This document shows, in pieces, positions 16,601 to 41,485 of a DNA stretch of 64,000 nt; the first letter of the stretch is position 1, and each line of letters begins with the position of its first letter. Made by a program: the position numbers and the translations under genes. The stretch comes from a virus. Lineage: Duplodnaviria > Caudoviricetes. The stretch is taken from positions 523 to 64,522 of the IMG/VR virus record IMGVR_UViG_3300024255_000023. One strand, written 5' to 3'. The notes under the pieces are model-generated. The model saw only the letters and a program-made list of their open reading frames with translations, was not told the origin of the DNA and made no database searches.

Positions 16601-19600
16601 AGTACAAACAGATTTACAAATGATTCAGTTGCTGAACAGAGATTGTTTTTCCAAGTATTTTTTGTAGAACTATTTAATTTAATAGAACTATCATTAACTA
16701 ATACAATTCCAGCAGTAAACTATCAACAGCTCGAAGCAGACAGAATTGGCATTAACGATTTAGATCCAGGAGAGGTGGCATTTGCTGCTCAATGGTTTAA
16801 TAGTTCTCTTACACTAGAAAGTGATACATTAACAGTAGTTAATGCACTTGAAAGAATTTATTTAGAGTCTTTTGCTGCAGGATCTCCTGATACAATTCCG
16901 CCAGCAAACGAATCAGCATATTCAACTATTTTTATTAGAGCAGGTACATACGACGAACAAATACCAATTCTAATTCCAGCAAATACAGCACTTAACGGAG
17001 ACGAATTGCGTGGTACTACTATTCAACCGGCAACTCCAATTAACACACTTTGTACTCGTACACAAGGTGATGTGAACTTGTTTACTGTAGGATCTACATT
17101 AAATATGGAAAATAATACTCCAGTACAGTTTGTATCATTAAACCCAGTTGATGAGATTAGTACAATACTAGGCGGTGTAACAGCAGGACAAACTTATTAT
17201 GTAATTGGAAGTTCAATTACTCCTACAACATTTTCAGTAGCAGAAACTAAAGATGCAACTCAAGCAGATTCAGTTGATATAACAACTAATATTGGTAATA
17301 TGTATGTTTACGGCGGCGAAGCATTACACGATATGTTCCATGTAAGAAATGCTACAGGTATTAGAAATATGACTGTTAAAGGTCTACGTGGTACACTAAC
17401 AGCAGAAAATGAATTCTTAACAAGACGCCCAACAGGCGGAGCTTATGTAGCACTTGATCCGGGTGAAGGACCAGATGATACAAGAGCTTGGATCACATAC
17501 AAATCACCATACGTGCAAAATGTAACAACATTTGGTACAGGATGTACAGGCATGAAAATTGATAGTACATTGCATAACGGCGGCAACCGATCAATGGTGT
17601 CAAACGACTTTACACAAATTTTATCAGATGGTATTGGTATTTGGTGTAAAGGCGGCGATGCATTAACAGAAGCTGTTTCGGTGTTCTCATACTACGGGTA
17701 CGCAGGTTACTTTGCTGAAGATGGTGCAAAAATGAGAGCTACAAACGGTAACAGTTCGTATGGTACATACGGTTGTGTTGCTGAAGGATTTGATATTTCA
17801 GAGACACCTGCTGTTGGTACAATTAATAACACATCGGGCGAAGCTACAGCACAAGCAGTTAGTGCATTAGGCGCAAATGCTGAGATTTTGAAAATTCAGT
17901 ATACACACGCAGGCGAGCAATACTATTCTAAAACAACTAACTATTTGAAAGAAAGTAATAATTTAATTTCAACTGAATGGGAAAATGACAGTAATGTAAC
18001 TATTATTAGAGCTCCGACAACTCCGTATGAAAATGAGTTTGCTTGGAAAATTACAGGTAATACTTCGTTGTCAAACAGTGCGTATTTTTGGCAAGATGTT
18101 AGTGTTAGTCCGCAAGGTAGAACATATACTAATGTAGCAGGTATTAACATTAGTGGTTCAGGTATTAATGCTACGTTTAACGTAACTGTAAATAGTGATG
18201 CGTATCAAGTGTCAGTAAATAACGGCGGCGAAAGTTATGTTGTTGGAAACCAAATAACATTATCAGGTAAGTCCTTTGGCGGACGTTCTCCTGAAAACGA
18301 TATTATAGTTTCAGTTGACGAATTGGCAATTACTGCGGTACAACAAATATCTTTTGTAGGAACTGTGCCAGAAGGATCTGCACTAGGATACAATGTAAGT
18401 ATACATGCTAAAAAAGGCGACTCGAGCTACATTGACTTAGGTACTGAATTTTCTGGCAACACGCTAGTTGAAACATCAGTAAGATTTAATTTTGATACTG
18501 GTGCTTTTACAAGTTTAGAAGGCGCTGGGCTTGTATTAGCATCGAATTTAAGGGCAGACTTTTTAGAAGAAGGATGGTATCGACTATCATTTAAAGTTGT
18601 AGACACAACAGCACTTAACACACAGTTGCGAATGAAAGTATATCCAAGAGGTACGGACGGTATTACAGGTTCAACAAGTTTTTATGGAGCACAAATAACT
18701 ACAAGTGATAATGTACAGTTCTTTATAGAGACTACTAATAATACTCCAACAGGATACGCTAATATTAAAGTTACTGGTGCTGGCAATGGCATTAAAGTAC
18801 AAGCAGACGAGTTGAGAACAGGATCAATATTCCAAGCACGATTACTAGAAACAGCAGATGTAAGACTAGGCGGGTTAGGGTACAAGATACAAACAAACAA
18901 TGCACAAACTGGTACTACTGAATACTTGACATTAGCAGGATCAGAAGTTGCTACAGCAGCAGAATATGAAGGCACAAGGCTAGTTGTACAATCAGGGTTA
19001 GGTGCTGGACAGTACGGTATAATTGCAGACTATGATGTAACAAGTAAGCAGGCAACTATTGTTAAGGAATCTTTTGATCCACAAGAAATTGTAGCAAGTA
19101 CAGCAACTGATAATAGACTAACAATTAGTTCTGATTCAGCAAATCAATTCTTTAATGTATACGAAGGACAGAAAATACAATTTACACCAACATTCTATGA
19201 TATTGATATAAACAGTATATCACAAAGTGGAATTAGTGTAGTTGGTACGTTAGGTAATTTAAACAACTATATGTACGTAACTACTACTACAAGATTACGT
19301 GTTGGACAAAAAATTAACTTTAGTGGAACACCGTTTGGTGGAGTAATTATAGGATTTGACTATTATATTATTGATGTAATAGATGATCAAGCTATACAAA
19401 TATCAACATCACAGGGTGGTGCAGTGTGGCCTCTTTCAAATGTTAATATTGAAGATCCTGATGATTCTCCAATAACATTTACTGGCGAAATTCCAAACTT
19501 TACATTAAACTATCCTGATGATACTGGATATCTTAAAGCAGATACCACTACTAATATGGTAACCACGTTGCCAATACAGTTTACAGGAACGTCACTGGGC

Positions 19601-22480
19601 GGAGTTGTATTAGGCTCAGTTTACTATATACAAGATATAATAAACGCAACTCAATTTACAATATCAGAATCTTTAGTTAATGTAAGTGTTACAGAAACAC
19701 AAGCATCAAATAATGGATTAGTTATAGCAGATACTAGCGCATTAACTCCATTAAATCCAGTAATATTTAAAACAGGAATAATAGGCGGACTTGGTGAAAA
19801 GCAAACATATTTTATAAATTCAATTTTAAGTGGAACTGAATTTAGTCTGTCTAGTGATACTATTACTAGAACTGCAACAGCTAGTGAAGCAGTATCAAAC
19901 TTGATTACTGTAGACGATACAACAGGCTTTATTCAAAATGCTCCTATTGTGTTTAATGGAGTTGAGTTTGGAAATATTGATAACGACACTGTTTACTATA
20001 TTCAGGTTGTTAACGATGCAACATCATTTACAGTATCGGAAGCACCTGGTGGTGCAGCACTTCCGTTGCTAACAGCAACTGGCGATTTAATTGTTAGAAC
20101 TGTTACTGATACTGTAGTAGTTACTTCAGAAGTTGGCGCAATGGAAGGTAATACAACCGGAAATAAATTTGCTGTAGACGCTGACAGGGGAACAATGGAA
20201 GGATCTTTCTTTACAGAAATATTCGGCGGCGTAACAGCAGGCGTAACTTATTTTGTTAAAGAAAAATTTAATTTATCAGGCAGTGAAATAACAATTTCCG
20301 AAACATTAGGCGGCGCAGAATTTGTTCCAACTAATGAAACAGGCTCAATGCAATTTAACGAAGTTGGTTGGGATCATATTAATCCTGGGACACCGTTAAC
20401 TACTACATTTGATTCAACATCCATTTATATTATTGAACCAAGGATAAGTTTTGACCGTCCACCTTTTACAAAAGTTGATCTAGAGCCAATTCCAAATGGT
20501 GCAGAATATTCCTTTATAATAAGTGACGGCGAAAACTTTTTTGCTGTTCCTGGAGAGTCAGATACACTAAGAAGTACAACTGATTATCTTAACTTAGATT
20601 TAGCATATACATTACCTATTTCAGGTACCGGAGTTAATCCTTGGGTAGATGGATGTCACGGAAACAATACTTGGTTTATTTTATCTAAAGATGGACAGCA
20701 GTCGTTGTACTCAGTATCAAATGGGCTTACTTGGTTAAGTGTAAATCTTCCTTCGCTATCAAGTGGACAATATACTACAGTTACATATGGTAACGGAGTA
20801 TTTGTTGCTGCATCAGTAGGAAATCAAACACTAGCATACTCAACGAATAATTGTTCTACATGGACAAGTGTAGATATATCGTCTTTAACATATGATGATT
20901 ATAGAGCAGTTGCATACGGAAAAGAAATATTTGTAGCAGTAGATGGTAGTGCTAATGCTGGTATATACTCAACGGATAACGGCGTAACTTGGAACGAAAC
21001 AACAATAGATCCATCAGGAGATTCAACCGTTTACAATTGGAGACATGTAGAATTTGGTAATGGACGTTTTGTAGCAGTATCAGAAGATAATAGACCAGCA
21101 GCATATAGCTTTGACGGCATTAACTGGTATACTTCAGATGTAAGTGTAAGTGCTACTGATTTTAAATATGCACAAGGTGTATTTGTTGCTGTTGATAACA
21201 CAACTGGATATTGTTATACATCACCAGACGGGATAACATGGTTTGAACAAACTGAGTTAGTTGGTATTGATAGTAACGTATTAGGATTTGGAATAGATCC
21301 AACTACCCGACAAGGATGGTTCGTAACTATAGATAGTGCAGGTACTTCAGCAATTAAATTTAGTGCAGGAAGTAGAGCAATAGCTAGAGCGACAGTATCG
21401 AGTTCATCAATATCAGGAGTAAGTATGTTAGAACCAGGTTCAGGATACGATGACGAAAGTCCTGCACCAGGAGTGAAAATTACTGATCCTAATAACTCTG
21501 AAGAAGCACTAATACAAGTAAGAGTAGGTAACGGAACATTAGGTGCGCCGACATTTACTAACTTTGGAGCAGGGTATAATACAACATCAACAGCAATTGC
21601 AATTAGAGGTGACGGATTTAGTGATTCATTCCAAACTGGTTTAAGATTTATTGCTAAAGATATTACTAGATTCCCTGCACCAGGTGACAACTTACAGTTT
21701 GACGGCGATCTTACTGTTTATCGTGTTGCTAAAGCAGAAAGATTATTTGGAACAACAGCACCAAACTTAGAAGCAGTAATAACAATTAGTCCTCAGCTAA
21801 CACAAGAAACAGCACCAGCTAATGATACACCGTTTACAATACGTAGTAGATTTAGTCAGTGTCGTATTACAAACCATGACTTCTTAAATATTGGTTATGG
21901 TAATAAGATACAATCTAATTATCCAAACTTACCAGAGAACACTGGACTAGAACCACAAGATGAAATTGTTGAAACAAACAACGGTCGTGTGTTTTATTCA
22001 AGTACAGACCAAGATGGTAACTTTAGAGTTGGTGACTTATTTGCTGTTGAACAAGCAACAGGTATTGTTACACTAAGTGCTCAAGAGTTTGGATTAGAAG
22101 GACTAACAGAATTAACAATTGGCGGCGTTGCACTTGGTGGATCACCGACAGTAGTTTCAGAATTTTCAACAGACGGAACATTTGTAGCTAATTCTAATAA
22201 CATTGTTCCAACACAGAAGGCAATTAAAACTTATCTTGCAAGCAGATTAAGTCAAGGTGGTTCAGATACATTTACAGGTTTGCTACAAGCAGGTACTGTT
22301 AAGGTAGGTGGACCTGACGAAATTACATCTTCAATTCCAGAAGGTGCAGAAGGTTTTGGTATAAACATGGGTGTAAAAGTTAACGTTACGGGCCCTTACG
22401 CAGGGTGGAGTGGTGACGGACTAGCAATGGCGTATTTCATGAAGACATTTGTCGATCCTACACGTGGATCAGGCAATTAG
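13676..22480 (+). CDS. giant virion protein (2934 aa): WxxxxxYxxGDxVxYGG carbohydrate-binding-like repeats, metal-motif insert, beta-helix core, propeller-like repeats
   Basis: SEFKISRLRFSWVG N-terminus shared with 22513; SPYVQNVTTFG, SNDFTQILSDGIG, YGNGxFVA repeats, STDQDGNFRVGD. Confidence 0.8.
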   Translation: MSEFKISRLRFSWVGNWQDQYVYNKDEIVQYEGKAYVCLIPHTSNAFYSDLGAVEPKWELMMTGQTWKGPWSQFQQYSLDNIVIFGGVVYKCNEQHLSGSIIDPDIDKWDTYAESKTWKSEWTSSTTYGPGDIVNYGGSSYECIIAHVSAETDLLGLEDDYTAIDDSTEKFWKVAQEGVQWRGDFATSTEDSSTLRYKLNDLVRYGPSIYKCNWGHAPSILGELSDEFYYAGQIKDDGRHGEIFDRSIEVNGLKLVAATNIGGQIAVPDEWLRKTARAVQLLTDPDSIGINAEYQKNLIKTLRGDIGTPHAGIPAAQRIAYGSGDSYTPNWLQDANVSSYTGYQYFLDSHVVNDMVWYKNTSGPNPSVGDRDIEEILEHLMHTIHLFGIPGAVPGADLAIAVQAQENPDFQTTDLHVAMIEAMNAGVFNPSEYVTVIATEDPESLLTTYSITDAEQAEIAYKEYLYLLNWSMWEMSEFWNGGSLSPEWTLIDQLGVQENNPLGYALFNTYIQPVLSKPNFVTLRNIFQNGDLGVSGYQPDITDNLAGDEGTWVKSYWDLWLPGLDYENVWSNNSIYQPGDIVLYGGYLFQSIVINNIGNTPSTTYGEDSTDAWELVSKAFDVEGIWDNVTPYKIGSVVTYGGDLYVALVDSQGVNPGNSVITAPYEAEDSAGTRLQVNFGDSVSANSITIGMTVTGEGFASGQTVEAVSVDNDSSNASQIATITLSHAPDGTITDEALITFAGAKAGYWEVMIPGFSWEGRWNTDIVYNIDDIAYYGNATYYCLREHTSSLVNRPDYDLQNTYWTMYLQHDQRNILTTPGEMITRDSSENTTLAIGEQNSILKVIDGLPTWSDLDFTPNVYYVATNGIDAIGRGTTPDTAWRSVNYACANVLEGTLQQNAKVLLEKNKEFIVQEAFNWFLYQQNEGADPFVSSYDFDNTKVIRDARQIVDAVTRDLIRGGNCNTVAAALSYFDLESTNRFTNDSVAEQRLFFQVFFVELFNLIELSLTNTIPAVNYQQLEADRIGINDLDPGEVAFAAQWFNSSLTLESDTLTVVNALERIYLESFAAGSPDTIPPANESAYSTIFIRAGTYDEQIPILIPANTALNGDELRGTTIQPATPINTLCTRTQGDVNLFTVGSTLNMENNTPVQFVSLNPVDEISTILGGVTAGQTYYVIGSSITPTTFSVAETKDATQADSVDITTNIGNMYVYGGEALHDMFHVRNATGIRNMTVKGLRGTLTAENEFLTRRPTGGAYVALDPGEGPDDTRAWITYKSPYVQNVTTFGTGCTGMKIDSTLHNGGNRSMVSNDFTQILSDGIGIWCKGGDALTEAVSVFSYYGYAGYFAEDGAKMRATNGNSSYGTYGCVAEGFDISETPAVGTINNTSGEATAQAVSALGANAEILKIQYTHAGEQYYSKTTNYLKESNNLISTEWENDSNVTIIRAPTTPYENEFAWKITGNTSLSNSAYFWQDVSVSPQGRTYTNVAGINISGSGINATFNVTVNSDAYQVSVNNGGESYVVGNQITLSGKSFGGRSPENDIIVSVDELAITAVQQISFVGTVPEGSALGYNVSIHAKKGDSSYIDLGTEFSGNTLVETSVRFNFDTGAFTSLEGAGLVLASNLRADFLEEGWYRLSFKVVDTTALNTQLRMKVYPRGTDGITGSTSFYGAQITTSDNVQFFIETTNNTPTGYANIKVTGAGNGIKVQADELRTGSIFQARLLETADVRLGGLGYKIQTNNAQTGTTEYLTLAGSEVATAAEYEGTRLVVQSGLGAGQYGIIADYDVTSKQATIVKESFDPQEIVASTATDNRLTISSDSANQFFNVYEGQKIQFTPTFYDIDINSISQSGISVVGTLGNLNNYMYVTTTTRLRVGQKINFSGTPFGGVIIGFDYYIIDVIDDQAIQISTSQGGAVWPLSNVNIEDPDDSPITFTGEIPNFTLNYPDDTGYLKADTTTNMVTTLPIQFTGTSLGGVVLGSVYYIQDIINATQFTISESLVNVSVTETQASNNGLVIADTSALTPLNPVIFKTGIIGGLGEKQTYFINSILSGTEFSLSSDTITRTATASEAVSNLITVDDTTGFIQNAPIVFNGVEFGNIDNDTVYYIQVVNDATSFTVSEAPGGAALPLLTATGDLIVRTVTDTVVVTSEVGAMEGNTTGNKFAVDADRGTMEGSFFTEIFGGVTAGVTYFVKEKFNLSGSEITISETLGGAEFVPTNETGSMQFNEVGWDHINPGTPLTTTFDSTSIYIIEPRISFDRPPFTKVDLEPIPNGAEYSFIISDGENFFAVPGESDTLRSTTDYLNLDLAYTLPISGTGVNPWVDGCHGNNTWFILSKDGQQSLYSVSNGLTWLSVNLPSLSSGQYTTVTYGNGVFVAASVGNQTLAYSTNNCSTWTSVDISSLTYDDYRAVAYGKEIFVAVDGSANAGIYSTDNGVTWNETTIDPSGDSTVYNWRHVEFGNGRFVAVSEDNRPAAYSFDGINWYTSDVSVSATDFKYAQGVFVAVDNTTGYCYTSPDGITWFEQTELVGIDSNVLGFGIDPTTRQGWFVTIDSAGTSAIKFSAGSRAIARATVSSSSISGVSMLEPGSGYDDESPAPGVKITDPNNSEEALIQVRVGNGTLGAPTFTNFGAGYNTTSTAIAIRGDGFSDSFQTGLRFIAKDITRFPAPGDNLQFDGDLTVYRVAKAERLFGTTAPNLEAVITISPQLTQETAPANDTPFTIRSRFSQCRITNHDFLNIGYGNKIQSNYPNLPENTGLEPQDEIVETNNGRVFYSSTDQDGNFRVGDLFAVEQATGIVTLSAQEFGLEGLTELTIGGVALGGSPTVVSEFSTDGTFVANSNNIVPTQKAIKTYLASRLSQGGSDTFTGLLQAGTVKVGGPDEITSSIPEGAEGFGINMGVKVNVTGPYAGWSGDGLAMAYFMKTFVDPTRGSGN

Positions 22481-22512: not shown

Positions 22513-25500
22513 ATGGCAGAATTTAAACTAGGTAGAATTAGGTTTGTATGGCAAGGGGATTGGTCTACAAGTCGCACATACGTTGCAGATGACGTTGTAA
22601 GTTTTGGTGGCAAATCATACATATGTATTAAGAACCACACATCCTCAGCAGCATTTGATACAGATTTTTCAAACGCAATACCAAAGTGGGACATTGTTTC
22701 CGATGGTACAAGTTGGCAAGGTGACTGGCAACCAGAATATGCTTATGCACCAGGTGACGTTGTTAAGTACGGCGCACTTGTATATATTGCTGAAACAGGA
22801 CACACATCAGCTACATTTGTTGCTCCAGACTATTTAGGTCTTGAAGAAGATTTAGACAATTGGACAGAGTTTGCTACTTCGTTTGATTGGAAGGGCGACT
22901 GGACTGTAGCTACAAGATTTAAAATTAACGACCTTGTAAAATATGGTGGTTATGTTTACCTATGTAAAACTGCACACGTTTCTGCCGCAACTGTGACATT
23001 AGGACTTGAACCTGATCAAGCTAAATGGGAATTATTTAGTGATGGATTAGTTTATACAGGTGACTGGACTTTAGGTACTCGTTACCGTGTAAACGATATT
23101 GTAAAGTATGGCGGTAACGTGTTTATTGCAAAAGCTCCACATACAGCAGCAAACTTTATTACAGACGAAGCAGCAAACTGGGATGTGTTTATCGAAGGCT
23201 TCCAATTTGAAGACAGTTGGGCAAATGCTACAGTTTACCAAATTGGTGATACTGTAACGTATGGCGGTTATGTATATGTTGCTAAAACAAACAATACAAA
23301 TGCACAACCAACAGCTAGTCCAGACGATTGGGAAGTATTTACAACAGGCTTTAGTTTCCAAGGAGACTGGAGTTCATTAGATTCTTATAAAGTAGGCGAT
23401 GTTGTTCGCATTGGTGGTACAACATACGTTGCTATTGCTGATAGTTCAGATCAAGAGCCGCCAGAAGCAGCATTTTGGAGTAGATTAAACTCAGGTGTTA
23501 AATGGACAAGAAGTACTGAAAACTTTTCACAGATTGCAGGTGCAAACGCAGCTGGCGGATCTGGATCAGGCGCAAAATTTGATATTGTAAAATCAAACAC
23601 AGTATATACAGTTAGTGTGTCTACTGGCTTTGCAGGAACAGGTTATGCTAATAATGATGTGATAACGCTATCCGGTGCAAACCTTGGTGGAACTACACCA
23701 GCTAACGATATTGTAGTAACAGTAACTGGCGTAACTGGCGGAGCAATTGATACTATAACACATACTGGTTATTCGTCAAGTTGGATTGCAGGAAGAAATT
23801 ATGCAGTAGGCGATGTTGCAATTTATGGCGCAAGTTCATTTATTGTTATTGCTAAACATACTTCAGAAGTAGCAAATAGACCAGATAACGATTTAACAGC
23901 GTCTTACTGGAACTTGTTAACATTAGGTAGTGAAGCATTAGCTCTTGAAGTTGAAGGCGATTTAGTTTATTATGGTAATCAAGGACCTACAAGACTTCCA
24001 ATCGGTGTTGATGGACAAATTTTACGTGCAACTGACGGATTTCCAGACTGGGCAAACTACGGCTTAATTGATAACGTTGTTTATGTTGGACCATTAGGAA
24101 ATAATGTACCAGCACCAGAATCAGGCTTAACAATTGATAAACCTTTTAGTAGTGTACGTTATGCCTTAGACCAAATACGCAATGGATATTTAAATCCTAA
24201 GACTAAACAAATTCTTAAAAATAACAAACAGTTTTTAGTTAAAGAAGCATCAAACTGGGTAAAACATAATTATAATGTTACTATTACTGCTTCAGCTACT
24301 GGTTCACGTACTTTTACATGTAACTCAACAGAAAACTTAGTAGACGGATTACCAATAGTATTTGACGGAGTACTAGGCGGCGTAACAGCTGGAACAGTAT
24401 ACTATGTAGATGCTATTGTAAGTGCAACTGAATTTAGAATTGCAGCAACACCAGGCGGGATATCAGTTATATTAACTAATACTACTGGTAGTATGCAAGG
24501 TGACGCATCTGTAAACTTTGTTAACTTGGAACAAGATTGTTGTTATGTTATTGACGCATTAGTATATGATATTAGTCGCGGCGGAACATTAAAAACAACC
24601 GAAGTTACAAATTCTTATTATACTGCTGCTGGAAATGAGTATATTTCAAATGTACAAAGAGATCAGCGTGTAATTAATGAAGCAGTATATGCACAATTAA
24701 AAGTATTTGTTGATGAAGTATTAAGTAACACAACACCAATAAATTATCAAGGACTAATGGGCATTAATACTAATCAAAGAGCTCAACAGGTTATTGATTT
24801 AGACTTAGTAGCAGAAGCTGAAGGTAAAACAAAAGCTTCTACACTACTTGATATTGTTATTACAGGCATTGAAGCAAAATCAAATACAGCAATTGCATTA
24901 CCAGTATTACCAAATACAACAGTGTTTATTAAAACAGGTACATATAACGAAATACTTCCAATGATTCTTCCAGAGTACACAGCGGTAGTAGGCGATGAAC
25001 TTCGTACAAGTGTTGTTCAACCACAACCGGCAATTGCACTACTAGCAAATGATAAAGCTAAAAGTACAAATGCTTTAAATAGAATTAAAGATATTTCTTC
25101 AGAAATTATTTCAAATGTTGCTATTACTCCAACCACAGGAAACACTGTACCTCAAGCATATATCAATGGATACGGTGGTACTACACAATCAAACAATAGA
25201 TTAAACAATAGTATTGAAGTTGTTAAAAATGTATTAGCTACAGGATTAAGTATTGTAGATACGATGCCAGCTGTTGGCCCAACACCAACAAGCGGATCAA
25301 ACAATGCAAGTGACGCAGGTCATCTAAATGCAATTGCACAAATTGAAGCAAACTACGAATTTATTAAGAAAGAAATTACTGCTTGGATCGCTGTACAAGT
25401 TGCAGGATCAATTGCTCCATTTGCATCAAACTTTGTGTATAATGCAGAGACATGTGCAAGAGATGTTGAATACATCTTAGACGCAATACGTTATGACTTA

Positions 25501-28500
25501 ACATATGGCGGTAACTTCCAAACTTCAGTAGCATCAAGAAGCTATTTTGTAGACGGTAGTCCAGTATATGGCGCAGGCGAAAAAGAAGAAACACTTGCAG
25601 CATACGCTAGACTAAAAGTTGTAGTTGGAGATGTAATTACTGAGACAGCAGTTACAGTAAGTGATGCCGGAGACGGATCAGGCAATGACATAACACAAGA
25701 TACAACTGGTACAGCAGGTAGTGCGGCAGCTGAAACTTTTGCTGAAACAAGAGTACAAGAAATTTATGATACTATTGATACTGATGGTACACTAGCAAGT
25801 GTAATTGCACCAGATACATCTTGGGTTGCAGGAAACTTTACAACTATTAGTGCAGAAATTACAGCACTTAAATCAAGTGTACAAGCAGGTGCTATTACTT
25901 GGGTCAATACAAATTACCCTAACTTTACATTTAATGAATCAAAATGTTCAAGAGATATTGGATATATTGTAGATGGTTTAGAGTATGACATTTTGTTTGG
26001 TAGTACTTTTAATTCATTAAAATCAGGTATGGCTTATCGTAGAGGAATTTCGTCAACGGAAGTTGTACTAGATAATCAACTTGAACCTACACTAGGAACA
26101 ATAGAATATACAAGAAATCGTTTAAAATACATTACTACAAGAACTTACAAAGTGCAAGAAAGCACTGATCTAATTGTTAATATTTTAAATAATGGTTCTG
26201 GGTCAGTTCCAGTTAACTATACAATTACAGATCCAGTAGGTTACGATGCAGGATTTTTCAATGCAAGACGCTTAATTGTAGCTAACAAAGATTTTATCAT
26301 TGCAGAAGCAGAAGCATACATGGTTGATAACTACAACACATTATGGTCAAGTTTTGATTCAGATGTAAAAGCAACTTGGTTAGAAGACGTTGATAGCATT
26401 GTTGATGCATTGCAGTATGACTTAACTTATAGAGGAAATAACGCAACACAGACTCATTCAAACAAATATTATAATGATGCACTTGTGTTTGTTCGTCCAG
26501 GTTCAGAAAAAGATGAAAGTTTAGCATTAATTTTAAGACTACAGAATATAATAGATAATATTGCAGTAGGCGATAGTAGTGGCTGGACTAAATCTTCAAG
26601 TAACAGCGACACACAAGATACAACTGGTACAGCAGGTTCAGCTGGCGCTGGCACATATGCAGCAGATAGATTAGGTGAAATATATGCAACTATAGATACT
26701 GCTATTACTTCTGCAAGTGTTACTCCGTCAGTAGCGTGGACTGATACCGCATTACAAGCATTTAAAACAACATTAGATGCAAGAAAAGCTATAATACAAG
26801 ATGCAACACTTGACTATATCAAATATACATACCCTACACTAAACTTTACTGATTCAGTATGTTCAAGAGATATTGGATTGTTAATTGACTCACTTGTACT
26901 TGACACAGTATTTGATTCAAACTTCCTAACTTCGAAACTAGCAGAACAATATAGATCTGGTGTAGTAGTATTCACAGGTGCAAATCTTACAGAGAACTTA
27001 GCGGCTATTGCATATGTAAACAGTTATATCACAGAAATTACAGACGGCGTAGTAAGTACTCCAGGTTCGAGAAAACACGGTGATCGTGCATATAAACTTA
27101 TTAAAGACATGAACACTGTTGTCCAAAACGGGTTAGGTGCATTACCACCGAGTGTATTCCCAACAGCCCCTGGATACAATACAGCATCGTTTAGTAATAC
27201 TGCGTATGCTACTGCAAGTAATACAACTGGTGTTACTACAACATACGGTGATGCAGCTGCACAGCTAGTAAAAAATGCAGCGTTTATACAAGATGAAATT
27301 CGTCACTGGTTAGAAGATGCAGGCAACGGTTATGACGGTGTTTGGAATAGTATAAGCACTGATGGACAAGATCGCTGTATTCGAGATGTTGGATATATTT
27401 TAGATGCGGCACGTTACGATTTATTATACGGTGGTAACACACAATCAATCGTTGCAGGTAATGCATACTTTAGTAACTTTGTTCTTACAATTAGTGCTAC
27501 TGAAGTACCAGCAACACTTGCAGCATACGCTAGACTAAAAGTTGTAGTTGGCGAAGTAATTGCAGAAACAACTGTAACAGCAAGTACAGGAGTTACAGAG
27601 TCACAGGATACAACTGGTACAGCAGGCAATACAAATGCAGTTGAATTTGCTCAAGCAAGAGTGCAAGACATAGTTGATCATATTAATAATACATTACCAA
27701 ATAACACTATTGAAATTGCAAACACTTGGCAACAGCTAGAACTACAAAATGCATACAACAGAGTTGTTGCTCGTAAAACTGAACTAGTTGAAGATGTTGT
27801 GTTTTGGGTAGAAAAATTTGCTCAAGAACTTACATTTAACCAAGCAACTTGCCGCAGAGATGCAGGACTTATTGTTGATGCACTTGCACGTGATCTTTAT
27901 ACAGGATCTAACTTTGCAACAACTAAAGCTGGTATGAGCTATTATAGATTAATTGCGTCAGCACTGAAAGTTAAAAACGAACAGTTATATGCTACAGTTG
28001 GCTCAATGGAATTCTTAGCACAAAAAGCAAGACGTGTAGCAACACTTCCTGCAAATGCTGCTATAGAAATGTTAATTGAAGATATTAATGCATACATTGA
28101 TGGCGGACAACTTCCAATACAGAAATGGGTAACACCTGCTACAGGCGGAGACGCTAACGATATAGCAGCGGCATCTATTATTTGGGAAAACACTAAATTT
28201 ATACAAGAAGAGGTAATTGCATTTATTGCTGAAACTTATCCTGAGTTAAATTATAATAAAGACAAATGTAGAAGAGACATTGGATATATCATTGATGCTA
28301 TACGTTATGATTTAACATATAGTGGCGATGCTGCAACATTAAGAGCAGCTGAATATTACTGGACAAAAGACTTAAACGACGAAAACGTTCATACTTTAGA
28401 AGCAGATGAAAAAACAGCAACTTTAGCGGCATACGATCATATGAAGTTCTTGTTAGAAGATTTAGCACTAAACACTTTAGGTAGTCCGGGCGCAGTTCAA

Positions 28501-31500
28501 ACAGATTATGCTCCTGTATTTAGAGATGAACTACAAACAATTGGCGATGCTGGATCATTAAGCAAAGTAACAACATTAATGAATACGTTGTATAATACAA
28601 TTGGCGATATATTGGCGAAGCCACAGTTATATATTACTGATGTAACTAATAATATTTTCACTATGGATAACAATGTTCCGCATAACTTAACTGTAGGAGA
28701 CGAAGTTGAATTTACTGATGCTCCTAGTGCAGATTACCTTTTATACTTTGTTAAGTCAACACCATCGGCAACAACGTTTTCACTAGCAACTTATTTTAAT
28801 GGTCCAATATTTGAATATAGCGTTGGTCCAACAGAGTTGTTTGCTTGTCCGTACAGAACAGCATCCTTAACAGATGTTCCAGCAGTACTGCAACAGCAAT
28901 TTACAAACTTAACAGGTTCAGCAGAAGCAATTAAAACTACAATTACTGAATATATTGCAGACAAGTTCCCAACATTAGATTATAATGTTGAGAAATGTGA
29001 AAGAGACGTTGGCTACATTATTAATGCAGTTGGCCGCGATATGATGAATAATAGTAACTATCAAACAGTACTAAATGCACTTGCATACTATAGAGGAACT
29101 AGTGCAGCTAAAGTAACTGGAAGTCAAAAAGTTGCAACAGTACAATCTTACAGAGAATTAAAGAATAAGATTGGAACTTTTGTAAATGGTAGTCCTGTAG
29201 CATTAAAACGTACTAACCAATTAATGGATATTATTATTAATATGCTCGATAACGGTGCAAATGTTACTCCAGAAATTCATGGTACTATTACATACTTTAA
29301 TGATAGAGAAACAATTAACGCTGCAGATATTATGACTGCTAATAAAAACTTCTTAGCAAATGAAGCTACAGCGTGGATAGAACAATACTACGGCGGAACT
29401 GTAGAAGACTTAGCAGGATCTCCGGGAACTGTAACTTTCAATTCAGCACACAACTTAGTAGTAAATGACCCGATCAAATTTGATTCAGGTGCATTTGGTG
29501 ATTTAGTTGCTGGAACAATATATTATGTATCAGAAGTTGTAAGCGCAACTGAGATACAAATTTCCGACAAAGCAGGCGGCGAGTCATTAGTACTTGGGGC
29601 AGCTACTGGATCAAGTGTTGCAACATATGCATTTGATAGAGCAGCATGTCGTAGAGACACTGAAAGCTATATTGATGCAATTGTAATGGACTTGAAATAT
29701 CCAGGTAACGCAAATTCATGGAGAGCTGCACAACTTTACTTAAATGCAGTACAAGGTTCTGAACGTGCAGATATGTATCATGTACGTAATGCAACAGGCG
29801 TAAGAAATATGACTGTTAGTGGATTGCGTGGTAACTTAACTGAACTAAACGATTTTGGAACAAGACGTCCAACAGCAGGTTCGTATGTATCATTGGATCC
29901 AGGCTTTGGTCCTAATGATAGTGTATCATGGGTAACTAACAAATCTTGCTATGTACAAAACGTAACAACATTTGGTGTTGGCTGTGTTGGTTGTAAAATT
30001 GACGGAGCTCTACACGCAGGCGGTAACAGATCGATTGTTAGTAACGACTTTACACAAGTACTATCAGATGGTATTGGTGTATGGTGTTCAGGTAACAACT
30101 CACTAACAGAGCTTGTGTCTGTGTTTGCTTACTATAACTATTCAGGTTACTTAGCAGACTTAGGCGGCAGAATACGTGCTACTAACGGTAACAGTTCATA
30201 TGGTACATATGGTGTTATTGCTGAAGGTACTGACACTGGCGAAAATCCAATTGTTGCAGAAGTTGATAACTTGTCACAAGACGCATTAGTTTATAGTGTA
30301 TTAACAGACGGTGAACAACAAGTGTTAGGATTTGAATTTGCAAACGCAGGTACAAATTATACAAATGCTGAAGTTGCTATTAGTGGTACAGGATTTAATG
30401 CTGCTGTAAACGACACAGAATTTAGAGACAGAGCGGTTATTGAATCAAGAATTATTGACTTAAATGATGGTAACGGTACAGGCGGTGAAGATCATGTTAC
30501 AGCACAAAACGTTGCACAGGGCGGTACTGCTTATAAAGTTACTGTAGCAGCAACTGACACTGCATTAGGTGGTGCATACGTAGGTATGAATATCCAATTA
30601 ACAGCAGGTACAGGTGTTGGACAATACGGTACAGTATTAAGATTTAACAACGGTACTAAAGATGCATTAGTGTACAAGCCTTCATATGATAACTTAACAG
30701 TAAGTGCTTCAGTTAACACTGGAAACTTACTAACGGTTCCAAGTACAGATACATTGTACGTTGATATGCCGATATATTTAAGTGACGATATTGGCGGCGC
30801 AACAAAGGAAACATTATACTTTGTTACAGCACTAGTAAGCGGCACACAGTTTACAATTAGTGACGAAGTAGGCGGTACTGATCTTTCACTAACTAGTGAA
30901 ACTAAGAACGTTGTATTATATGCAGCAGGCTTTGATCATGTTATTCCAGGAACTACAATAGCAACTGGACTTGATCTAACAACAGGTTATACTATTGAAC
31001 CTGCGGTAACATATAGATCACCAGGTTGGAATGCAGTTAATATTGCAACTGCTGGATCCGTTGCATTTGGTAGTATGATATATGTTGATGGTAGATTTGT
31101 TGCATTACAAGAAGGTGGCACAGGTACAAACTATTCAACATCAGGAATTACTTGGCTTGCAGGCGGAGTGTTACCTACATCAGGTAACTGGAATAAAGTA
31201 GCAACAGGCGGAGGCACAGGTGCAACTGCAACAGCAGTAATTGGCGGACTTGGTGGATCAGGTGCTGTGTTAACAACTGAACTTGGTGAACTAAACAATA
31301 TTGGTGCACCAGGGCCAACACAGATTTCTAAGGTAACAGTAGTAAATGGTGGTACAGGGTATCAAACTGCACCAACTATTGTGTTTACTCCAACAGCAGG
31401 CGGCGGTGGAGCTACAGCAGTATGTACAGTTAAAGATGGTATTATTCAAGAAGTTATTATTACAAGTACAGGCGCTGGTTATTCACAAGCACCAACTGTA

Positions 31501-33726
31501 ACAGCTGAAACTGACAAACTTACTGATATTATTGTTAACAGCTTTGGTAACAACTATCTAACAACTCCAACTGTAACTATTACAGGCGGTGGCGCAAGCA
31601 CACAAGCATCAGTAACTGCAACTACTAACAACAATGGTGTTAATAGAATTCTTATTGACACTGATGCTGACAATGATCCATTACGTGGAGACGGCTATAC
31701 TAGTGTACCAACAGTAACAATTACTGATCCTAGTGCAAGAATAGTAGCACTATCAGTTGGATCTACAAACAATGCATACTTACCATTATCAGCAGCAGTT
31801 GATGATGCTTGGACAGCAGGTAATCCATTACCAAGCTCAGTTTACTCAGATATTACATTTGGTAACGGAGTATATGTAGTAACAGGCGGTACTGGCGGTT
31901 CAGGTAGTGCAGCTACATCAACAGATGGATCAACTTGGGTATCGAGAACAATTACTAACCCAGCAGCTGGCAACTTTGTTGCACTAGCATTTGGTGCAAC
32001 TAAATTTGTAGCACTAAATGATAACGGTGCTTCTGCAATATCAACTAACGGTATTGTTTGGACAGTAGGCGGCACATTGCCAGGAAGTTCAACTGATTGG
32101 ATTGACATCACTTACGGTAACGGAAGATTTGTTGCAATAAGTGCAAGTGGTGATTATGCAGTTAGTGTTGATGAAGGAACAAATTGGACTACAGTAGGAA
32201 CAACTTTAGCAAATATGTTCAATACAGGATGGATAGGTATAGAATATGGTCAAGGATTATTCCTTGCATCGAGAGCAGGATCATCGGATTGGGCTGCTAG
32301 CCAAGATGGACTGATTTGGACACCAAGATTAGAATCTGGTACTGAAACGTTCAAAGCATTTGCATTTGGTAACCCATCGAATAACCCAACTTGGGTAGCT
32401 GCTTCTAATGCTGCTAATACTACTGGACAGTATATTGCAACAGGCGCAACACCGATTGGTAGAGCGTATGTAGCTGACGGATCAGTTACTACATTAACTT
32501 TAAGAGAACCAGGAAGTAATTATCCAACTGGAACTATAACAAGTACAACAGCACCTAATACAATAGCATTATCGCTAACCTGGAATATGTATGTCGGACA
32601 ACCAATTACATTTGACGGTACTGCTTTAGAAACTATTGGATTAAGTAGTGAAACACTGTACTATATTAGTGCATTATCGGGTGGTAATATTGAAGTAAGT
32701 TTAACATCAGGTGGCGCAAGTTTTGATATTACAACTGTTACAACAGATAATATTGGAACAGTATCGTTTGAAGCAGGGCCAGTAGTAACAATTACTGATC
32801 CTAACTCAACAATTGATGCAGCAGTTAATCCAAGAATTAGAAGTGGTGCATTAGCTAACCCAACCTTTACTAACAGAGGTACAGGTTATACAACAGCAAC
32901 AGCTGAATTAGCAGGCGATGGTAACGCAGACTTGTATCAACCAAGTACGTTTATTGCTGTTAAAGGATTGTTTGAATTACCAGAACCAGGATCAAATGTT
33001 GAATTTGCAGGCATTGATGGTAGCTATTATAAGTTGGTTACAATTAGTAATGTTATCGGACAGCCTGGAAGCTACACAGCAACATTCCAAGTAAGTCCAG
33101 GACTAACAGTATTAAATTCTCCAAAAGACGGTACAGTAATTACAACTACTAACAAGTATTCACAAGTACGTCTAACAGGACATGACTTCTTGTATATTGG
33201 TACAGGTAACCAAGCAAAAACTAACTATCCATTTGTTGATATCACAACAGCAAGTATTGCAGCACAACAGTTAAGCAGTGGAGGCGGACGAGTATTCTTT
33301 ACAAGTACTGACCAAGATGGTAACTTTAACGTTGGCGGATTGTTTGGAGTGCAACAGTCCACAGGTACTGCGACATTGGATGCTGACGCATTTAACTTAG
33401 CAGGATTGCAGTCATTGCAACTTGGTGGTATTGCGGTTGGTATTGGCTCAGCAGTTATTACACAGTTTAGTACAGACCCGTTCTTTACAGAAAACAGTGA
33501 CAATATTGTTCCAACACAAAGAGCAATTAAATCGTACATCACCGCACAGATTGGTGGTGGACAGAGTAGCTTGAACGTTAACACATTAACAGCAGGTGTT
33601 GTATTCATTGCAAATGATGAAATAACAACTACCAGCGGCGGTCAGCTAAATATTAAAGCGAAGATGAACTTTACAGGTGGCATAGACGGCGCACCTGTAG
33701 CACTTGGATACTTCTTAAGCAGATAA
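22513..33726 (+). CDS. giant virion protein (3737 aa), paralog of 13676, with tandem phycobiliprotein/globin-like repeats
   Basis: AEFKLGRIRFVWQG; many W...YxxGDVVxYGG repeats; 8 CxRD helical repeats; SNDFTQVLSDGIG; STDQDGNFNVG. Confidence 0.8.
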   Translation: MAEFKLGRIRFVWQGDWSTSRTYVADDVVSFGGKSYICIKNHTSSAAFDTDFSNAIPKWDIVSDGTSWQGDWQPEYAYAPGDVVKYGALVYIAETGHTSATFVAPDYLGLEEDLDNWTEFATSFDWKGDWTVATRFKINDLVKYGGYVYLCKTAHVSAATVTLGLEPDQAKWELFSDGLVYTGDWTLGTRYRVNDIVKYGGNVFIAKAPHTAANFITDEAANWDVFIEGFQFEDSWANATVYQIGDTVTYGGYVYVAKTNNTNAQPTASPDDWEVFTTGFSFQGDWSSLDSYKVGDVVRIGGTTYVAIADSSDQEPPEAAFWSRLNSGVKWTRSTENFSQIAGANAAGGSGSGAKFDIVKSNTVYTVSVSTGFAGTGYANNDVITLSGANLGGTTPANDIVVTVTGVTGGAIDTITHTGYSSSWIAGRNYAVGDVAIYGASSFIVIAKHTSEVANRPDNDLTASYWNLLTLGSEALALEVEGDLVYYGNQGPTRLPIGVDGQILRATDGFPDWANYGLIDNVVYVGPLGNNVPAPESGLTIDKPFSSVRYALDQIRNGYLNPKTKQILKNNKQFLVKEASNWVKHNYNVTITASATGSRTFTCNSTENLVDGLPIVFDGVLGGVTAGTVYYVDAIVSATEFRIAATPGGISVILTNTTGSMQGDASVNFVNLEQDCCYVIDALVYDISRGGTLKTTEVTNSYYTAAGNEYISNVQRDQRVINEAVYAQLKVFVDEVLSNTTPINYQGLMGINTNQRAQQVIDLDLVAEAEGKTKASTLLDIVITGIEAKSNTAIALPVLPNTTVFIKTGTYNEILPMILPEYTAVVGDELRTSVVQPQPAIALLANDKAKSTNALNRIKDISSEIISNVAITPTTGNTVPQAYINGYGGTTQSNNRLNNSIEVVKNVLATGLSIVDTMPAVGPTPTSGSNNASDAGHLNAIAQIEANYEFIKKEITAWIAVQVAGSIAPFASNFVYNAETCARDVEYILDAIRYDLTYGGNFQTSVASRSYFVDGSPVYGAGEKEETLAAYARLKVVVGDVITETAVTVSDAGDGSGNDITQDTTGTAGSAAAETFAETRVQEIYDTIDTDGTLASVIAPDTSWVAGNFTTISAEITALKSSVQAGAITWVNTNYPNFTFNESKCSRDIGYIVDGLEYDILFGSTFNSLKSGMAYRRGISSTEVVLDNQLEPTLGTIEYTRNRLKYITTRTYKVQESTDLIVNILNNGSGSVPVNYTITDPVGYDAGFFNARRLIVANKDFIIAEAEAYMVDNYNTLWSSFDSDVKATWLEDVDSIVDALQYDLTYRGNNATQTHSNKYYNDALVFVRPGSEKDESLALILRLQNIIDNIAVGDSSGWTKSSSNSDTQDTTGTAGSAGAGTYAADRLGEIYATIDTAITSASVTPSVAWTDTALQAFKTTLDARKAIIQDATLDYIKYTYPTLNFTDSVCSRDIGLLIDSLVLDTVFDSNFLTSKLAEQYRSGVVVFTGANLTENLAAIAYVNSYITEITDGVVSTPGSRKHGDRAYKLIKDMNTVVQNGLGALPPSVFPTAPGYNTASFSNTAYATASNTTGVTTTYGDAAAQLVKNAAFIQDEIRHWLEDAGNGYDGVWNSISTDGQDRCIRDVGYILDAARYDLLYGGNTQSIVAGNAYFSNFVLTISATEVPATLAAYARLKVVVGEVIAETTVTASTGVTESQDTTGTAGNTNAVEFAQARVQDIVDHINNTLPNNTIEIANTWQQLELQNAYNRVVARKTELVEDVVFWVEKFAQELTFNQATCRRDAGLIVDALARDLYTGSNFATTKAGMSYYRLIASALKVKNEQLYATVGSMEFLAQKARRVATLPANAAIEMLIEDINAYIDGGQLPIQKWVTPATGGDANDIAAASIIWENTKFIQEEVIAFIAETYPELNYNKDKCRRDIGYIIDAIRYDLTYSGDAATLRAAEYYWTKDLNDENVHTLEADEKTATLAAYDHMKFLLEDLALNTLGSPGAVQTDYAPVFRDELQTIGDAGSLSKVTTLMNTLYNTIGDILAKPQLYITDVTNNIFTMDNNVPHNLTVGDEVEFTDAPSADYLLYFVKSTPSATTFSLATYFNGPIFEYSVGPTELFACPYRTASLTDVPAVLQQQFTNLTGSAEAIKTTITEYIADKFPTLDYNVEKCERDVGYIINAVGRDMMNNSNYQTVLNALAYYRGTSAAKVTGSQKVATVQSYRELKNKIGTFVNGSPVALKRTNQLMDIIINMLDNGANVTPEIHGTITYFNDRETINAADIMTANKNFLANEATAWIEQYYGGTVEDLAGSPGTVTFNSAHNLVVNDPIKFDSGAFGDLVAGTIYYVSEVVSATEIQISDKAGGESLVLGAATGSSVATYAFDRAACRRDTESYIDAIVMDLKYPGNANSWRAAQLYLNAVQGSERADMYHVRNATGVRNMTVSGLRGNLTELNDFGTRRPTAGSYVSLDPGFGPNDSVSWVTNKSCYVQNVTTFGVGCVGCKIDGALHAGGNRSIVSNDFTQVLSDGIGVWCSGNNSLTELVSVFAYYNYSGYLADLGGRIRATNGNSSYGTYGVIAEGTDTGENPIVAEVDNLSQDALVYSVLTDGEQQVLGFEFANAGTNYTNAEVAISGTGFNAAVNDTEFRDRAVIESRIIDLNDGNGTGGEDHVTAQNVAQGGTAYKVTVAATDTALGGAYVGMNIQLTAGTGVGQYGTVLRFNNGTKDALVYKPSYDNLTVSASVNTGNLLTVPSTDTLYVDMPIYLSDDIGGATKETLYFVTALVSGTQFTISDEVGGTDLSLTSETKNVVLYAAGFDHVIPGTTIATGLDLTTGYTIEPAVTYRSPGWNAVNIATAGSVAFGSMIYVDGRFVALQEGGTGTNYSTSGITWLAGGVLPTSGNWNKVATGGGTGATATAVIGGLGGSGAVLTTELGELNNIGAPGPTQISKVTVVNGGTGYQTAPTIVFTPTAGGGGATAVCTVKDGIIQEVIITSTGAGYSQAPTVTAETDKLTDIIVNSFGNNYLTTPTVTITGGGASTQASVTATTNNNGVNRILIDTDADNDPLRGDGYTSVPTVTITDPSARIVALSVGSTNNAYLPLSAAVDDAWTAGNPLPSSVYSDITFGNGVYVVTGGTGGSGSAATSTDGSTWVSRTITNPAAGNFVALAFGATKFVALNDNGASAISTNGIVWTVGGTLPGSSTDWIDITYGNGRFVAISASGDYAVSVDEGTNWTTVGTTLANMFNTGWIGIEYGQGLFLASRAGSSDWAASQDGLIWTPRLESGTETFKAFAFGNPSNNPTWVAASNAANTTGQYIATGATPIGRAYVADGSVTTLTLREPGSNYPTGTITSTTAPNTIALSLTWNMYVGQPITFDGTALETIGLSSETLYYISALSGGNIEVSLTSGGASFDITTVTTDNIGTVSFEAGPVVTITDPNSTIDAAVNPRIRSGALANPTFTNRGTGYTTATAELAGDGNADLYQPSTFIAVKGLFELPEPGSNVEFAGIDGSYYKLVTISNVIGQPGSYTATFQVSPGLTVLNSPKDGTVITTTNKYSQVRLTGHDFLYIGTGNQAKTNYPFVDITTASIAAQQLSSGGGRVFFTSTDQDGNFNVGGLFGVQQSTGTATLDADAFNLAGLQSLQLGGIAVGIGSAVITQFSTDPFFTENSDNIVPTQRAIKSYITAQIGGGQSSLNVNTLTAGVVFIANDEITTTSGGQLNIKAKMNFTGGIDGAPVALGYFLSR
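24229..29760 (+). repeat. about 10 helical protein repeats of 140-170 aa with a CxRDxGYxxDAxxYDL motif
   Basis: Cys codons at 25453, 25945, 26860, 27376, 27850, 28267, 28996, 29647; degenerate copies near 24529 and 26377; 39-nt exact DNA repeat 25590-25628 = 27513-27551. Confidence 0.8.
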
Positions 33727-40878: not shown

Positions 40879-41485
40879 TATTTTTGGTGCACCTATTTTA
40901 AAATGTGAAATGCCTGGGCACAACGAAATAAAAGAACAATTTTCATCTTTTATTAAAGACAGTACTGCATTTCAACATAGTAGTTCGCAGTGGGAATGTA
41001 ATTGCGAAACTACGCATAATTCGCATGAAGAAAATAATCAATTACCGTGGGATATATTTTATGAAAATGTGCAAGGACCGTTACAAGCGTACCTTAATTA
41101 CTTAGGTATGGCTCCAGATGATCTTAAAAATTTATCAGGAAGAGCCTGGGCAAACAAATATAGTCAACATCAACATCAAGACGTACATTCGCACGGTGGC
41201 GGAAATAATTTAGTTAGTTGTGCATATGTACTTGACTTGCCCGATAATGATCCTGATTGTGGACAGTTTATGTTTTACAATAGTGCATTGAATTGGTTTC
41301 CAACTCATATAACTGAAAGATTTTATGGTTCTGGAAATAACGGTAAATTATTTAATCCTTTAATGCAAGAAGGCGATATTGTATTTTTTCCAAGTAACTT
41401 AGATCACTATGTAACATATAATAAAACAGAAAAGTTGCGTGTATCTATTAGTGCTAATTTTGGTATCGATTTTCCAGCCAATTAG
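40868..41485 (+). CDS. putative 2OG-Fe(II) oxygenase (TIGR02466-like)
   Basis: WAN...HSH...SCAY...EGDIVFFPSNLDHYV...RVSISAN. Confidence 0.8.
   Translation: MIDSIFGAPILKCEMPGHNEIKEQFSSFIKDSTAFQHSSSQWECNCETTHNSHEENNQLPWDIFYENVQGPLQAYLNYLGMAPDDLKNLSGRAWANKYSQHQHQDVHSHGGGNNLVSCAYVLDLPDNDPDCGQFMFYNSALNWFPTHITERFYGSGNNGKLFNPLMQEGDIVFFPSNLDHYVTYNKTEKLRVSISANFGIDFPAN

Follow-up and report, generated by a model that had tools for sequence, protein, structure and literature searches.

Predicted tandem phycobiliprotein-type domains with a candidate bilin-attachment site in a giant tail-fibre-type phage protein

Domains of the phycobiliprotein type have been described as subunits of light-harvesting antennae and, in more recent work, as small cellular proteins, the bilin biosynthesis-associated globins (BBAGs). 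In phycobiliproteins, the cysteine of the C-x-R-D motif forms a thioether to a bilin, which the arginine and the aspartate hold, and Asp13 and Arg93 pair across the alpha-beta interface. ApcE attaches its own bilin by itself. CXRD has been described as a bilin-binding motif, and BBAG-1 and BBAG-3, which bear it, as binding bilins without lyases; the same source describes BBAGs that occur with heme oxygenase and bilin reductase genes (PMC10151467). For phages, the role of the hemO and bilin reductase genes has been called 'still enigmatic', and BBAG-like partners have been suggested (Frankenberg-Dinkel and colleagues, PMC11480375). Here we analyse a stretch of 64,000 nucleotides from a virus of the Caudoviricetes (Duplodnaviria; IMG/VR record IMGVR_UViG_3300024255_000023, positions 523 to 64,522), which we call the window, and within it a giant virion protein that appears to carry an array of such domains.

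The protein, P0001, is a tail-fibre-type virion protein of 3737 amino acids (aa), recognised by its open frame at 22513..33726 on the plus strand, by PHROG matches and by CBM_5_12 stretches. Ten domains would make up its middle, each a divergent homologue of the bilin-binding globin domain found in phycobiliproteins and in the related BBAGs, and each lacking the N-terminal X-Y hairpin. Literature searches, partly noisy, returned no published report of phycobiliprotein-type domains in phage fibres, and neither did searches by terms in a 2021 jumbo-phage survey and a 2023 phycobiliprotein-origin paper.

The repeat array and its predicted fold

The open reading frame (ORF) at 22513..33726 contains ten back-to-back repeats, each of about 150-165 aa. 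Comparing the protein with itself by blastp showed that the repeats are significantly similar to one another (E down to 9e-34, with 44.6% identity over 166 aa), and a hidden Markov model (HMM) of the repeat located ten copies within positions 24529-29748. Since the eight full copies of the window had served to build this HMM, the internal blastp is the sole independent repeat evidence for the window. Repeats of two types, A and B, alternate along the array at a spacing of 139-243 aa. C-x-R-D occurs eight times (residues 981, 1145, 1450, 1622, 1780, 1919, 2162 and 2379), compared with 0.034 occurrences expected from the composition of the protein, and two copies are degenerate at this site (D-C-C-Y at residue 676 and W-L-E-D at residue 1292). 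The whole protein has 19 cysteines, 8/19 of them within C-x-R-D, and each repeat domain has one. An earlier note, made by a model from the sequence alone, had reported about ten tandem repeats within 24229..29760, eight of them with C-x-R-D. The tandem repeats are confirmed here, as are both counts.

All copies lie on the plus strand. Repeat 0 (24529..24891) is partial and degenerate, with D-C-C-Y replacing C-x-R-D; it matches HMM positions 53-144 (E 1.8e-9) and, by blastp, the other copies (E 6e-8). Repeat 1 (A-type, C-A-R-D, Cys981, 25297..25794) and repeat 2 (B-type, C-S-R-D, Cys1145, 25798..26250) are the two halves of the A+B pair that was modelled. The repeat HMM likewise delimits repeat 3 (26239..26727), an A-type copy that has lost the candidate pigment site (W-L-E-D), as well as repeat 4 (B-type, C-S-R-D, Cys1450, 26710..27186), repeat 5 (A-type, C-I-R-D, Cys1622, 27214..27708), repeat 6 (B-type, C-R-R-D, Cys1780, 27697..28155), which was modelled singly, and repeat 7 (A-type, C-R-R-D, Cys1919, 28114..28647). 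Repeat 8 (B-type, C-E-R-D, Cys2162, 28846..29307), recognised by both the HMM and internal blastp, is preceded by a beta-rich insert, and repeat 9 (C-R-R-D, Cys2379, 29617..29748) is a partial copy comprising helix E only (HMM positions 42-85, E 2e-8). A single Cys-less copy with V-I-R-D is found at 16358..16636 in the adjoining giant ORF at 13676..22480, also on the plus strand (HMM positions 14-98, E 1.4e-15).

The 3737-aa protein has a second, beta-rich repeat type of about 70-95 aa. Blastp detected four copies (E down to 3e-22) at 24211-24492, 29329-29613, 30691-30903 and 32518-32742 (residues 567-660, 2273-2367, 2727-2797 and 3336-3410), two of which stand directly before the partial globin copies at both ends of the array.

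Structure prediction placed the repeats among the phycobiliproteins. The first A+B pair, aligned with 27 homologous pairs taken partly from the window itself and partly from viral contigs, was modelled with AlphaFold2 (predicted local distance difference test score, pLDDT, 82.8; predicted template modelling score, pTM, 0.78). All 32 of the rows listed by Foldseek against the PDB (32/32) were phycobiliproteins, with E-values of 0.012-0.093. Aligning the A-type domain to the Foldseek candidates with VIA-align gave 49 phycobiliprotein entries among 50 rows, the remaining row being titled 'Bacterial fluorescent protein'. The alignment to Gloeobacter phycoerythrin beta (Z 15.4, root-mean-square deviation (rmsd) 2.5 Å, 137 residues aligned) pairs model residues 1-160 with chain residues 30-177, and therefore covers the whole globin core, the X-Y hairpin being absent.

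The B-type repeat 6, modelled alone (pLDDT 74.5), was compared with 48,161 chains with no Foldseek prefilter. Its best match was allophycocyanin (Z 14.2, rmsd 3.0, 124 aligned), followed by the ApcE bilin-binding domain 4xxi (Z 13.4, rmsd 3.1, 119 aligned). Ranks 1-10 were filled by allophycocyanin, the ApcE bilin domain, phycoerythrins, phycobilisome ApcE chains and two photocobilins, 8j2w and 8j2y, at ranks 5 and 10 (Z 12.5 and 11.1). Bilin binders scored 12-14, compared with at most 10.7 for sensor globins and 6-8 for haemoglobins. According to the tool's own note, helical models may reach a Z of about 14 by chance, which the graded ranking and the coverage of the full domain speak against here. 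Both models show a globin-like all-alpha core with helices A, B, E, F', F, G and H. Between its last two helices, the A-type carries an insert of 25-30 aa that is enriched in Thr, Gly and Ala. An ESM Atlas look-up of one repeat yielded a best score of 0.83, to Prophage_tail clusters, under the useful range.

The globin or phycobiliprotein fold that had been proposed is thus borne out by the AlphaFold models of both the A+B pair and the B-type, which match phycobiliproteins best; a fold other than globin-like, named beforehand as the outcome that would speak against the proposal, was looked for in these models and was not obtained. We regard it as very probable that the window repeats are true phycobiliprotein-fold domains, homologous to phycobiliproteins.

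Sequence similarity to phycobiliproteins and the candidate pigment site

Profile searches of PDB sequences chiefly matched phycocyanin alpha. With a profile of the A+B pair (E <= 10), eight of the nine matches were phycocyanin alpha (E 0.12-0.44). The top match, a fragment of a trimeric autotransporter adhesin (E 0.038), was discarded, as it aligns to the Thr/Gly-rich insert and not to the globin core. A profile of 72 repeats matched phycocyanin alpha in 26 of 28 cases, with a best E-value of 0.028. In every phycocyanin alpha alignment from both profiles, HMMER placed the repeat Cys on Cys84, and the repeat Cys, Arg and Asp align to Cys84, Arg86 and Asp87 by HMMER and hhalign alike. The resemblance that the earlier note had described (Cys84, Arg86, Asp87, Gly89, Tyr90, Tyr97, Leu99, Gly102-103 and an upstream F/Y-P) was reproduced by HMMER against solved CpcA chains and by hhalign. 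The copy at residue 1622 shows all of these identities, and the other copies deviate at one or two of the positions. C-x-R-D at the start of helix E is found in 8/10 window copies.

We compared an alignment of 72 non-redundant single repeats (A2) with one of 29 phycobiliproteins that represent every main class and come from the genomes of five cyanobacteria (A3). Using hhalign, these matched over 115 columns (17-142 against 37-162) with a probability of 92.7%, a P-value of 4.3e-7 and a score of 46.2, so that the profile-profile similarity extends over the domain. None of 100 column shuffles reached the real score (maximum 21.7 vs 46.2), and the reversed alignment scored 8.4. With the motif deleted, the same register was kept over 102-111 columns. 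This deletion halves the score, and therefore about half of the sequence signal is the motif, the remainder being weak and consistent. PF00502 had no match to the whole 3737-aa protein at E <= 1. Weak Pfam matches of single repeats to Cyt-b5, DUF2110_N, Acyltransf_2 and Plug were judged to be noise.

Support is good both for the fold and for the position of the pigment site as homologous, because two AlphaFold models, the PDB profile searches and the controlled profile-profile comparison agree. We place the repeat domain in the phycobiliprotein/BBAG superfamily, as a divergent branch that occurs in a new context; it is not a PF00502 member by Pfam's own criterion.

The candidate pigment site is largely conserved. 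Among the 72 non-redundant copies, Cys is present in 63/72, Arg in 62/72, Asp in 66/72 and all three in 60/72. The triad was intact in 29/32 copies of a second sample, and was invariant in 28 B-type copies. Its losses are coupled, since Arg is also gone in 7/9 Cys-less copies compared with 3/63 Cys-bearing copies, and in 5/9 Cys-less copies Trp replaces Cys. As judged from these alignments, this is how a ligand site would be expected to behave if it is either preserved in full or closed up. The state of repeat 3, with Trp for Cys and without Arg, recurs at the equivalent place of the arrays in L001, L002 and L009.

An Asp at Cys+14 surpasses the Cys-Arg-Asp triad in conservation; on helix E, it shares the face of the Cys, at a distance of about four helical turns. 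In the window, this Asp is found, for example, at residues 995, 1159, 1306, 1464, 1636, 1794, 1933 and 2176.

Although no Pfam model exists for the phage domain family, it is large: among 1.84 billion proteins, the 72-repeat profile matched no fewer than 1598 representative proteins at E <= 0.001, of which 683 also passed E <= 1e-30. Among the matches listed, most domain-bearing proteins were 1000-6400 aa long, with up to 37 copies. In 50,697 cultured-phage records, a piece of an S-PM2 protein had 317 matches, of which 316 were in records named Synechococcus, Cyanophage or Prochlorococcus and one in a record named 'Marine virus'. The window's A+B pair had 21 matches in these records, all to cyanophages. 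Among cultured phages, the domain was found only in cyanophages. The window's tail sheath matches 377 Synechococcus-named and 61 Cyanophage-named records; set against these counts, the 317 domain matches place the domain in roughly two thirds or more of cyanomyovirus records.

Bilin genes, light and the weighing of explanations

Neither a heme oxygenase nor a bilin reductase was found in the 64.5-kb record, and Pfam scans of its larger ORFs showed no lyase, consistent with the statement of the earlier note that the window has no bilin synthesis or lyase genes. CheckV estimates the record to be about 17% complete. A reductase with an adjoining heme oxygenase is encoded in four of 28 viral records that bear the domain, including both complete genomes (357 kb and 283 kb). 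The terminases of these two genomes are 81% and about 33% identical to that of the window, and they therefore represent two separate lineages. Terminase identities to the window are 92% for G076, 87% for G059, 81% for G031, 64% for G012 and about 33% for G033.

Cassette and domain are both present in G031, which is complete, and in G059 (275 kb, 77% complete), the two closest relatives whose sequences extend over the relevant region. In both, the heme oxygenase/reductase cassette is separated from the terminase by 72-85 kb, in the direction opposite to the fibres. By synteny, its position would fall outside the window record, G076, G077, G078 and G012, and the negatives in these records are therefore uninformative. 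Within the window's clade, a reductase was found in 1/18 contigs of at least 42 kb, and the misses are read as uninformative on the same grounds. Conversely, 15/43 reductase-bearing contigs of at least 35 kb contain the domain, namely 12/13 of those of at least 77 kb and 3/30 of the shorter ones. No psbA was found in any of the 28 domain-bearing records, two of them complete. As no GAF and no phytochrome PAS_2 domain was found in the two complete genomes and G059, the fibre domains are the sole acceptor of a known type found in these three. A strict one-to-one link between domain and cassette was considered and rejected, as Pelagibacter phage Mosig has the cassette without the domain. The pattern fits domain-bearing phages that have cyanobacterial hosts rich in bilins or else synthesise the bilin themselves, with few complete genomes behind it.

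The domain is also present in cyanophages whose adsorption has been studied. Phages P-HM1 and P-HM2 were described as not adsorbing in the dark and P-SSM2 as adsorbing in the dark, less than in light (Liu et al., PMC6628666); S-PM2 is described there as adsorbing only in light (PMC6628666). The repeat profile found four copies in P-HM2, four in P-HM1 and nine in S-PM2, with eight in the positive control S-H9-1 and none in P-SSM2. The cyanophage copies examined mostly keep C-x-R-D, and are located in S-PM2p091 and YP_195253.1 of S-PM2 and in PHM2_086 of P-HM2. With four phages and a base rate near two thirds, the association of the domain with light-only adsorption is only a lead. In the S-PM2 RefSeq record NC_006820, at 166300-170300 (L412), 14 tRNA features lie inside an 11-kb coding sequence annotated as 'short tail fiber protein', which looks like an annotation or coordinate clash.

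We consider bilin binding by the phage fibre domains to be the most likely reading, with the odds slightly in its favour. Each intact domain would then most likely hold a covalently bound linear tetrapyrrole, giving a pigmented fibre. Attachment may need no lyase, as for BBAG-1 and BBAG-3. The pigment could come from a phage cassette of heme oxygenase and ferredoxin-dependent bilin reductase, as in the nearest relatives, or, for cyanophages, from the host, and it might serve light-gated adsorption or photoprotection. The earlier note had left open whether the chain of domains binds a tetrapyrrole or serves as a spacer. The fold underlying both options stands, by models, profiles and hhalign.

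A range of observations weighs against pigment binding or against a close match to phycobiliproteins. At the level of homology, Foldseek with the A+B model gave no PDB match at E <= 0.001. PF00502 stays below its gathering cut-off of 22.2 bits, both on single repeats (13.1 bits in 1/10, repeat 5 being the sole one that matches) and on the whole record (12.3 bits). Removing 4, 7 or 12 columns from the Cys onward lowers the hhalign score to 23.0 (P 0.004, probability 8-9%), barely over the best shuffle. The X-Y hairpin is missing, as the alignments begin at chain residue 30-37 and the repeats abut with no space for it. At the position of Arg93 (Cys+9), which like Asp13 is invariant in A3, 63/72 copies have Asp. 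The strictest residue of the family is the Asp at Cys+14, present in 72/72 and 32/32 copies (104/104). Neither this Asp nor the Tyr at Cys+30, also among the strictest residues, has a counterpart in phycobiliproteins. As for the genes, CpeT lyase was found in 0/28 domain-bearing viral records, and Mosig carries a cassette (54.8% identity) with no domain at E <= 0.01. P-SSM2 has no domain copies by the repeat profile, which argues against a strict link between domain and bilin genes, and none of ten domain-bearing cyanophages from the window-pair search (0/10) was among the pcyA-type matches. Other domain-bearing lineages, relatives of L021 and L028, have a reductase in 0/13 contigs, which are 18-53% complete. 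Finally, co-occurrence in the large-phage clade is one inherited state and not many independent events, to which G033 adds one independent lineage.

Alternatively, the domain could be an apo structural module, that is, a bilin-globin descendant that is now a bead-like fibre segment and keeps Cys, Arg and Asp for folding or inter-domain contacts without a pigment. We rank this as the main rival, possible though clearly the less probable of the two. Copies arranged head to tail, up to 37 per protein, are how spacer modules often occur, the positions under the tightest conservation (Asp at Cys+14 and Tyr at Cys+30) do not belong to the pocket of phycobiliproteins, and Cys-less copies persist at conserved array places. 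The lack of CpeT and the uncoupling of bilin genes and domain in Mosig, P-SSM2 and the pcyA-carrying cyanophages point the same way. However, a lone Cys is kept with Arg and Asp in 88% of copies in a Cys-poor extracellular protein (19/3737 aa), for which folding alone is a poor explanation. Moreover, Cys and Arg are lost together, often with a bulky Trp in the Cys place, and the complete genomes without psbA would still make bilins while encoding no other known type of acceptor. The Cys site might instead serve other chemistry, such as binding a different tetrapyrrole (heme or biliverdin) or a metal, or forming an inter-chain covalent cross-link that hardens the fibre. The fold is globin-like, sensor globins and haemoglobins match at lower Z (6-10.7), the light-sensing photocobilins rank within the top ten, and the acidic residues (Asp at Cys+9 in 63/72, Asp at Cys+14 in 72/72) could bind a cation. 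Nevertheless, we find such chemistry improbable: bilin binders outrank heme globins structurally, one Cys per domain makes an intradomain disulfide impossible, and Cys-x-Arg-Asp is described as the specific bilin motif of the clade (PMC10151467). Least probable is that an unrelated helical repeat came to hold C-x-R-D by convergence or chance. The sequence evidence beyond the motif is weak (P 0.004), HMMER E-values against the PDB are no better than 0.03-0.4, and helical models can attain a Z of about 14 randomly. Such a coincidence would still have to account for the unchanged register over 102-111 columns after removal of the motif, for the motif at the same point of the same helix, and for two independently built models that rank phycobiliproteins first, one of them among 48,161 chains, with the whole globin core covered.

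Returning to bilin binding, the fibre could be a virion photoreceptor, in which a bilin on the domains absorbs light and the fibre changes conformation, so that adsorption occurs only in light. We think this rather doubtful. If true, it would provide a molecular basis for light-dependent cyanophage adsorption, and would explain heme oxygenase and bilin reductase in large phages without photosynthesis genes, the pigment being meant for the virion and not the host. If a bilin is bound at all, the virus particles would be pigmented, with a bearing on the purpose of heme oxygenase and bilin reductase in phages of non-phototrophs, as raised in PMC11480375, and on how some cyanophages adsorb only in light, as described in PMC6628666. 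Both questions would then be open to direct tests, since the domain is present in S-PM2, P-HM1 and P-HM2, all of them in culture.

Genomic setting and comparison with known systems

The window comes from a large T4-type phage and spans its tail, baseplate and packaging genes, among them those for baseplate wedge proteins, sheath, gp15, terminase and a fibre chaperone, together with several giant fibre-type ORFs. The 3737-aa protein matches PHROG families of tail-fibre, short-tail-fibre and virion-structural proteins (E 7e-171 to 9e-35), and its ORF neighbours baseplate wedge, tail-fibre, fibre chaperone, sheath and gp15 genes. These matches and neighbours support the assignment as a tail-fibre-type virion protein, in keeping with the virion context proposed before. 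Its N-terminus (approximately 22513-23500) has seven CBM_5_12 carbohydrate-binding stretches (E 1.7e-29), which suggests that the same fibre may bind glycan. The adjoining fibre-type ORF at 13676-22480 (2934 aa) has PHROG tail-fibre families in common with it.

Among cultured phages, the window's sheath is closest to those of the Pseudomonas PA5oct-like jumbo phages (43%) and the Sinorhizobium jumbo phage Phosso (48%), and not to cyanophages. Because of this and because no psbA is found in relatives, the window's phage is not a typical cyanomyovirus; it belongs to a clade of phages of about 350 kb without psbA in the records searched. The tail sheath (50982-54311) is unusually long, at 1109 aa. 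Between the fibre and tail genes lie sugar-modification genes (39076-40878, 41454-42197, 43688-44509 and 44484-45644), whose products are a carbamoyltransferase, a HAD/PNK3P-type phosphatase, an NAD-dependent epimerase and a fused PfkB kinase and cytidylyltransferase-like protein. Three paralogues of 2-oxoglutarate (2OG)-Fe(II) oxygenase are located near the gp15/neck region, at 40868-41485 on the plus strand and at 42139-42705 and 42706-43317 on the minus strand. Pelagibacter phage Mosig has three 2OG-Fe(II) oxygenase genes directly beside its heme oxygenase and bilin reductase, and the corresponding place in the window holds heptose/lipopolysaccharide-type genes.

How the phage domains relate to described systems can be set out as follows. 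They resemble the light-harvesting phycobiliproteins (CpcA/B, ApcA/B and CpeA/B; PF00502) in their globin core, in C-x-R-D at the start of helix E, in Tyr97 and Gly-Gly after this helix, and in their size of about 150-165 aa. They differ in lacking the X-Y hairpin, in having Asp for the invariant Arg93 and in scoring under the Pfam cut-off. Furthermore, phycobiliproteins are free alpha and beta subunits, whereas a single virion protein of 3737 aa joins the phage domains head to tail, and the A-type carries a Thr/Gly/Ala insert. The bilin-binding domain of ApcE is likewise a phycobiliprotein-like domain inside a large multidomain protein, but occurs as one copy per protein within the phycobilisome.

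The BBAGs, compared here by their published description, are also phycobiliprotein relatives outside light harvesting, and their pairing with the cassette has a parallel at the genome level in the phage relatives. However, they are described as small cellular proteins beside the biosynthesis genes, whereas the phage domains form virion arrays 70-85 kb from the cassette. Photoglobins and photocobilins are globin-type light sensors of the same wider clade. Unlike the phage domains, they are described as having the motif CXQD (PMC10151467) and are coupled to B12 domains, and the phage protein has no B12 domain. The nearest counterparts in phages are the giant cyanophage proteins annotated as 'short tail fiber', 'tail fiber' and 'gp7 baseplate wedge' (S-PM2p091, YP_195253.1 and PHM2_086), which contain the same domain with C-x-R-D. 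These proteins of T4-like cyanophages differ from that of the window in having fewer copies detected per protein and in belonging to phages with cyanobacterial hosts.

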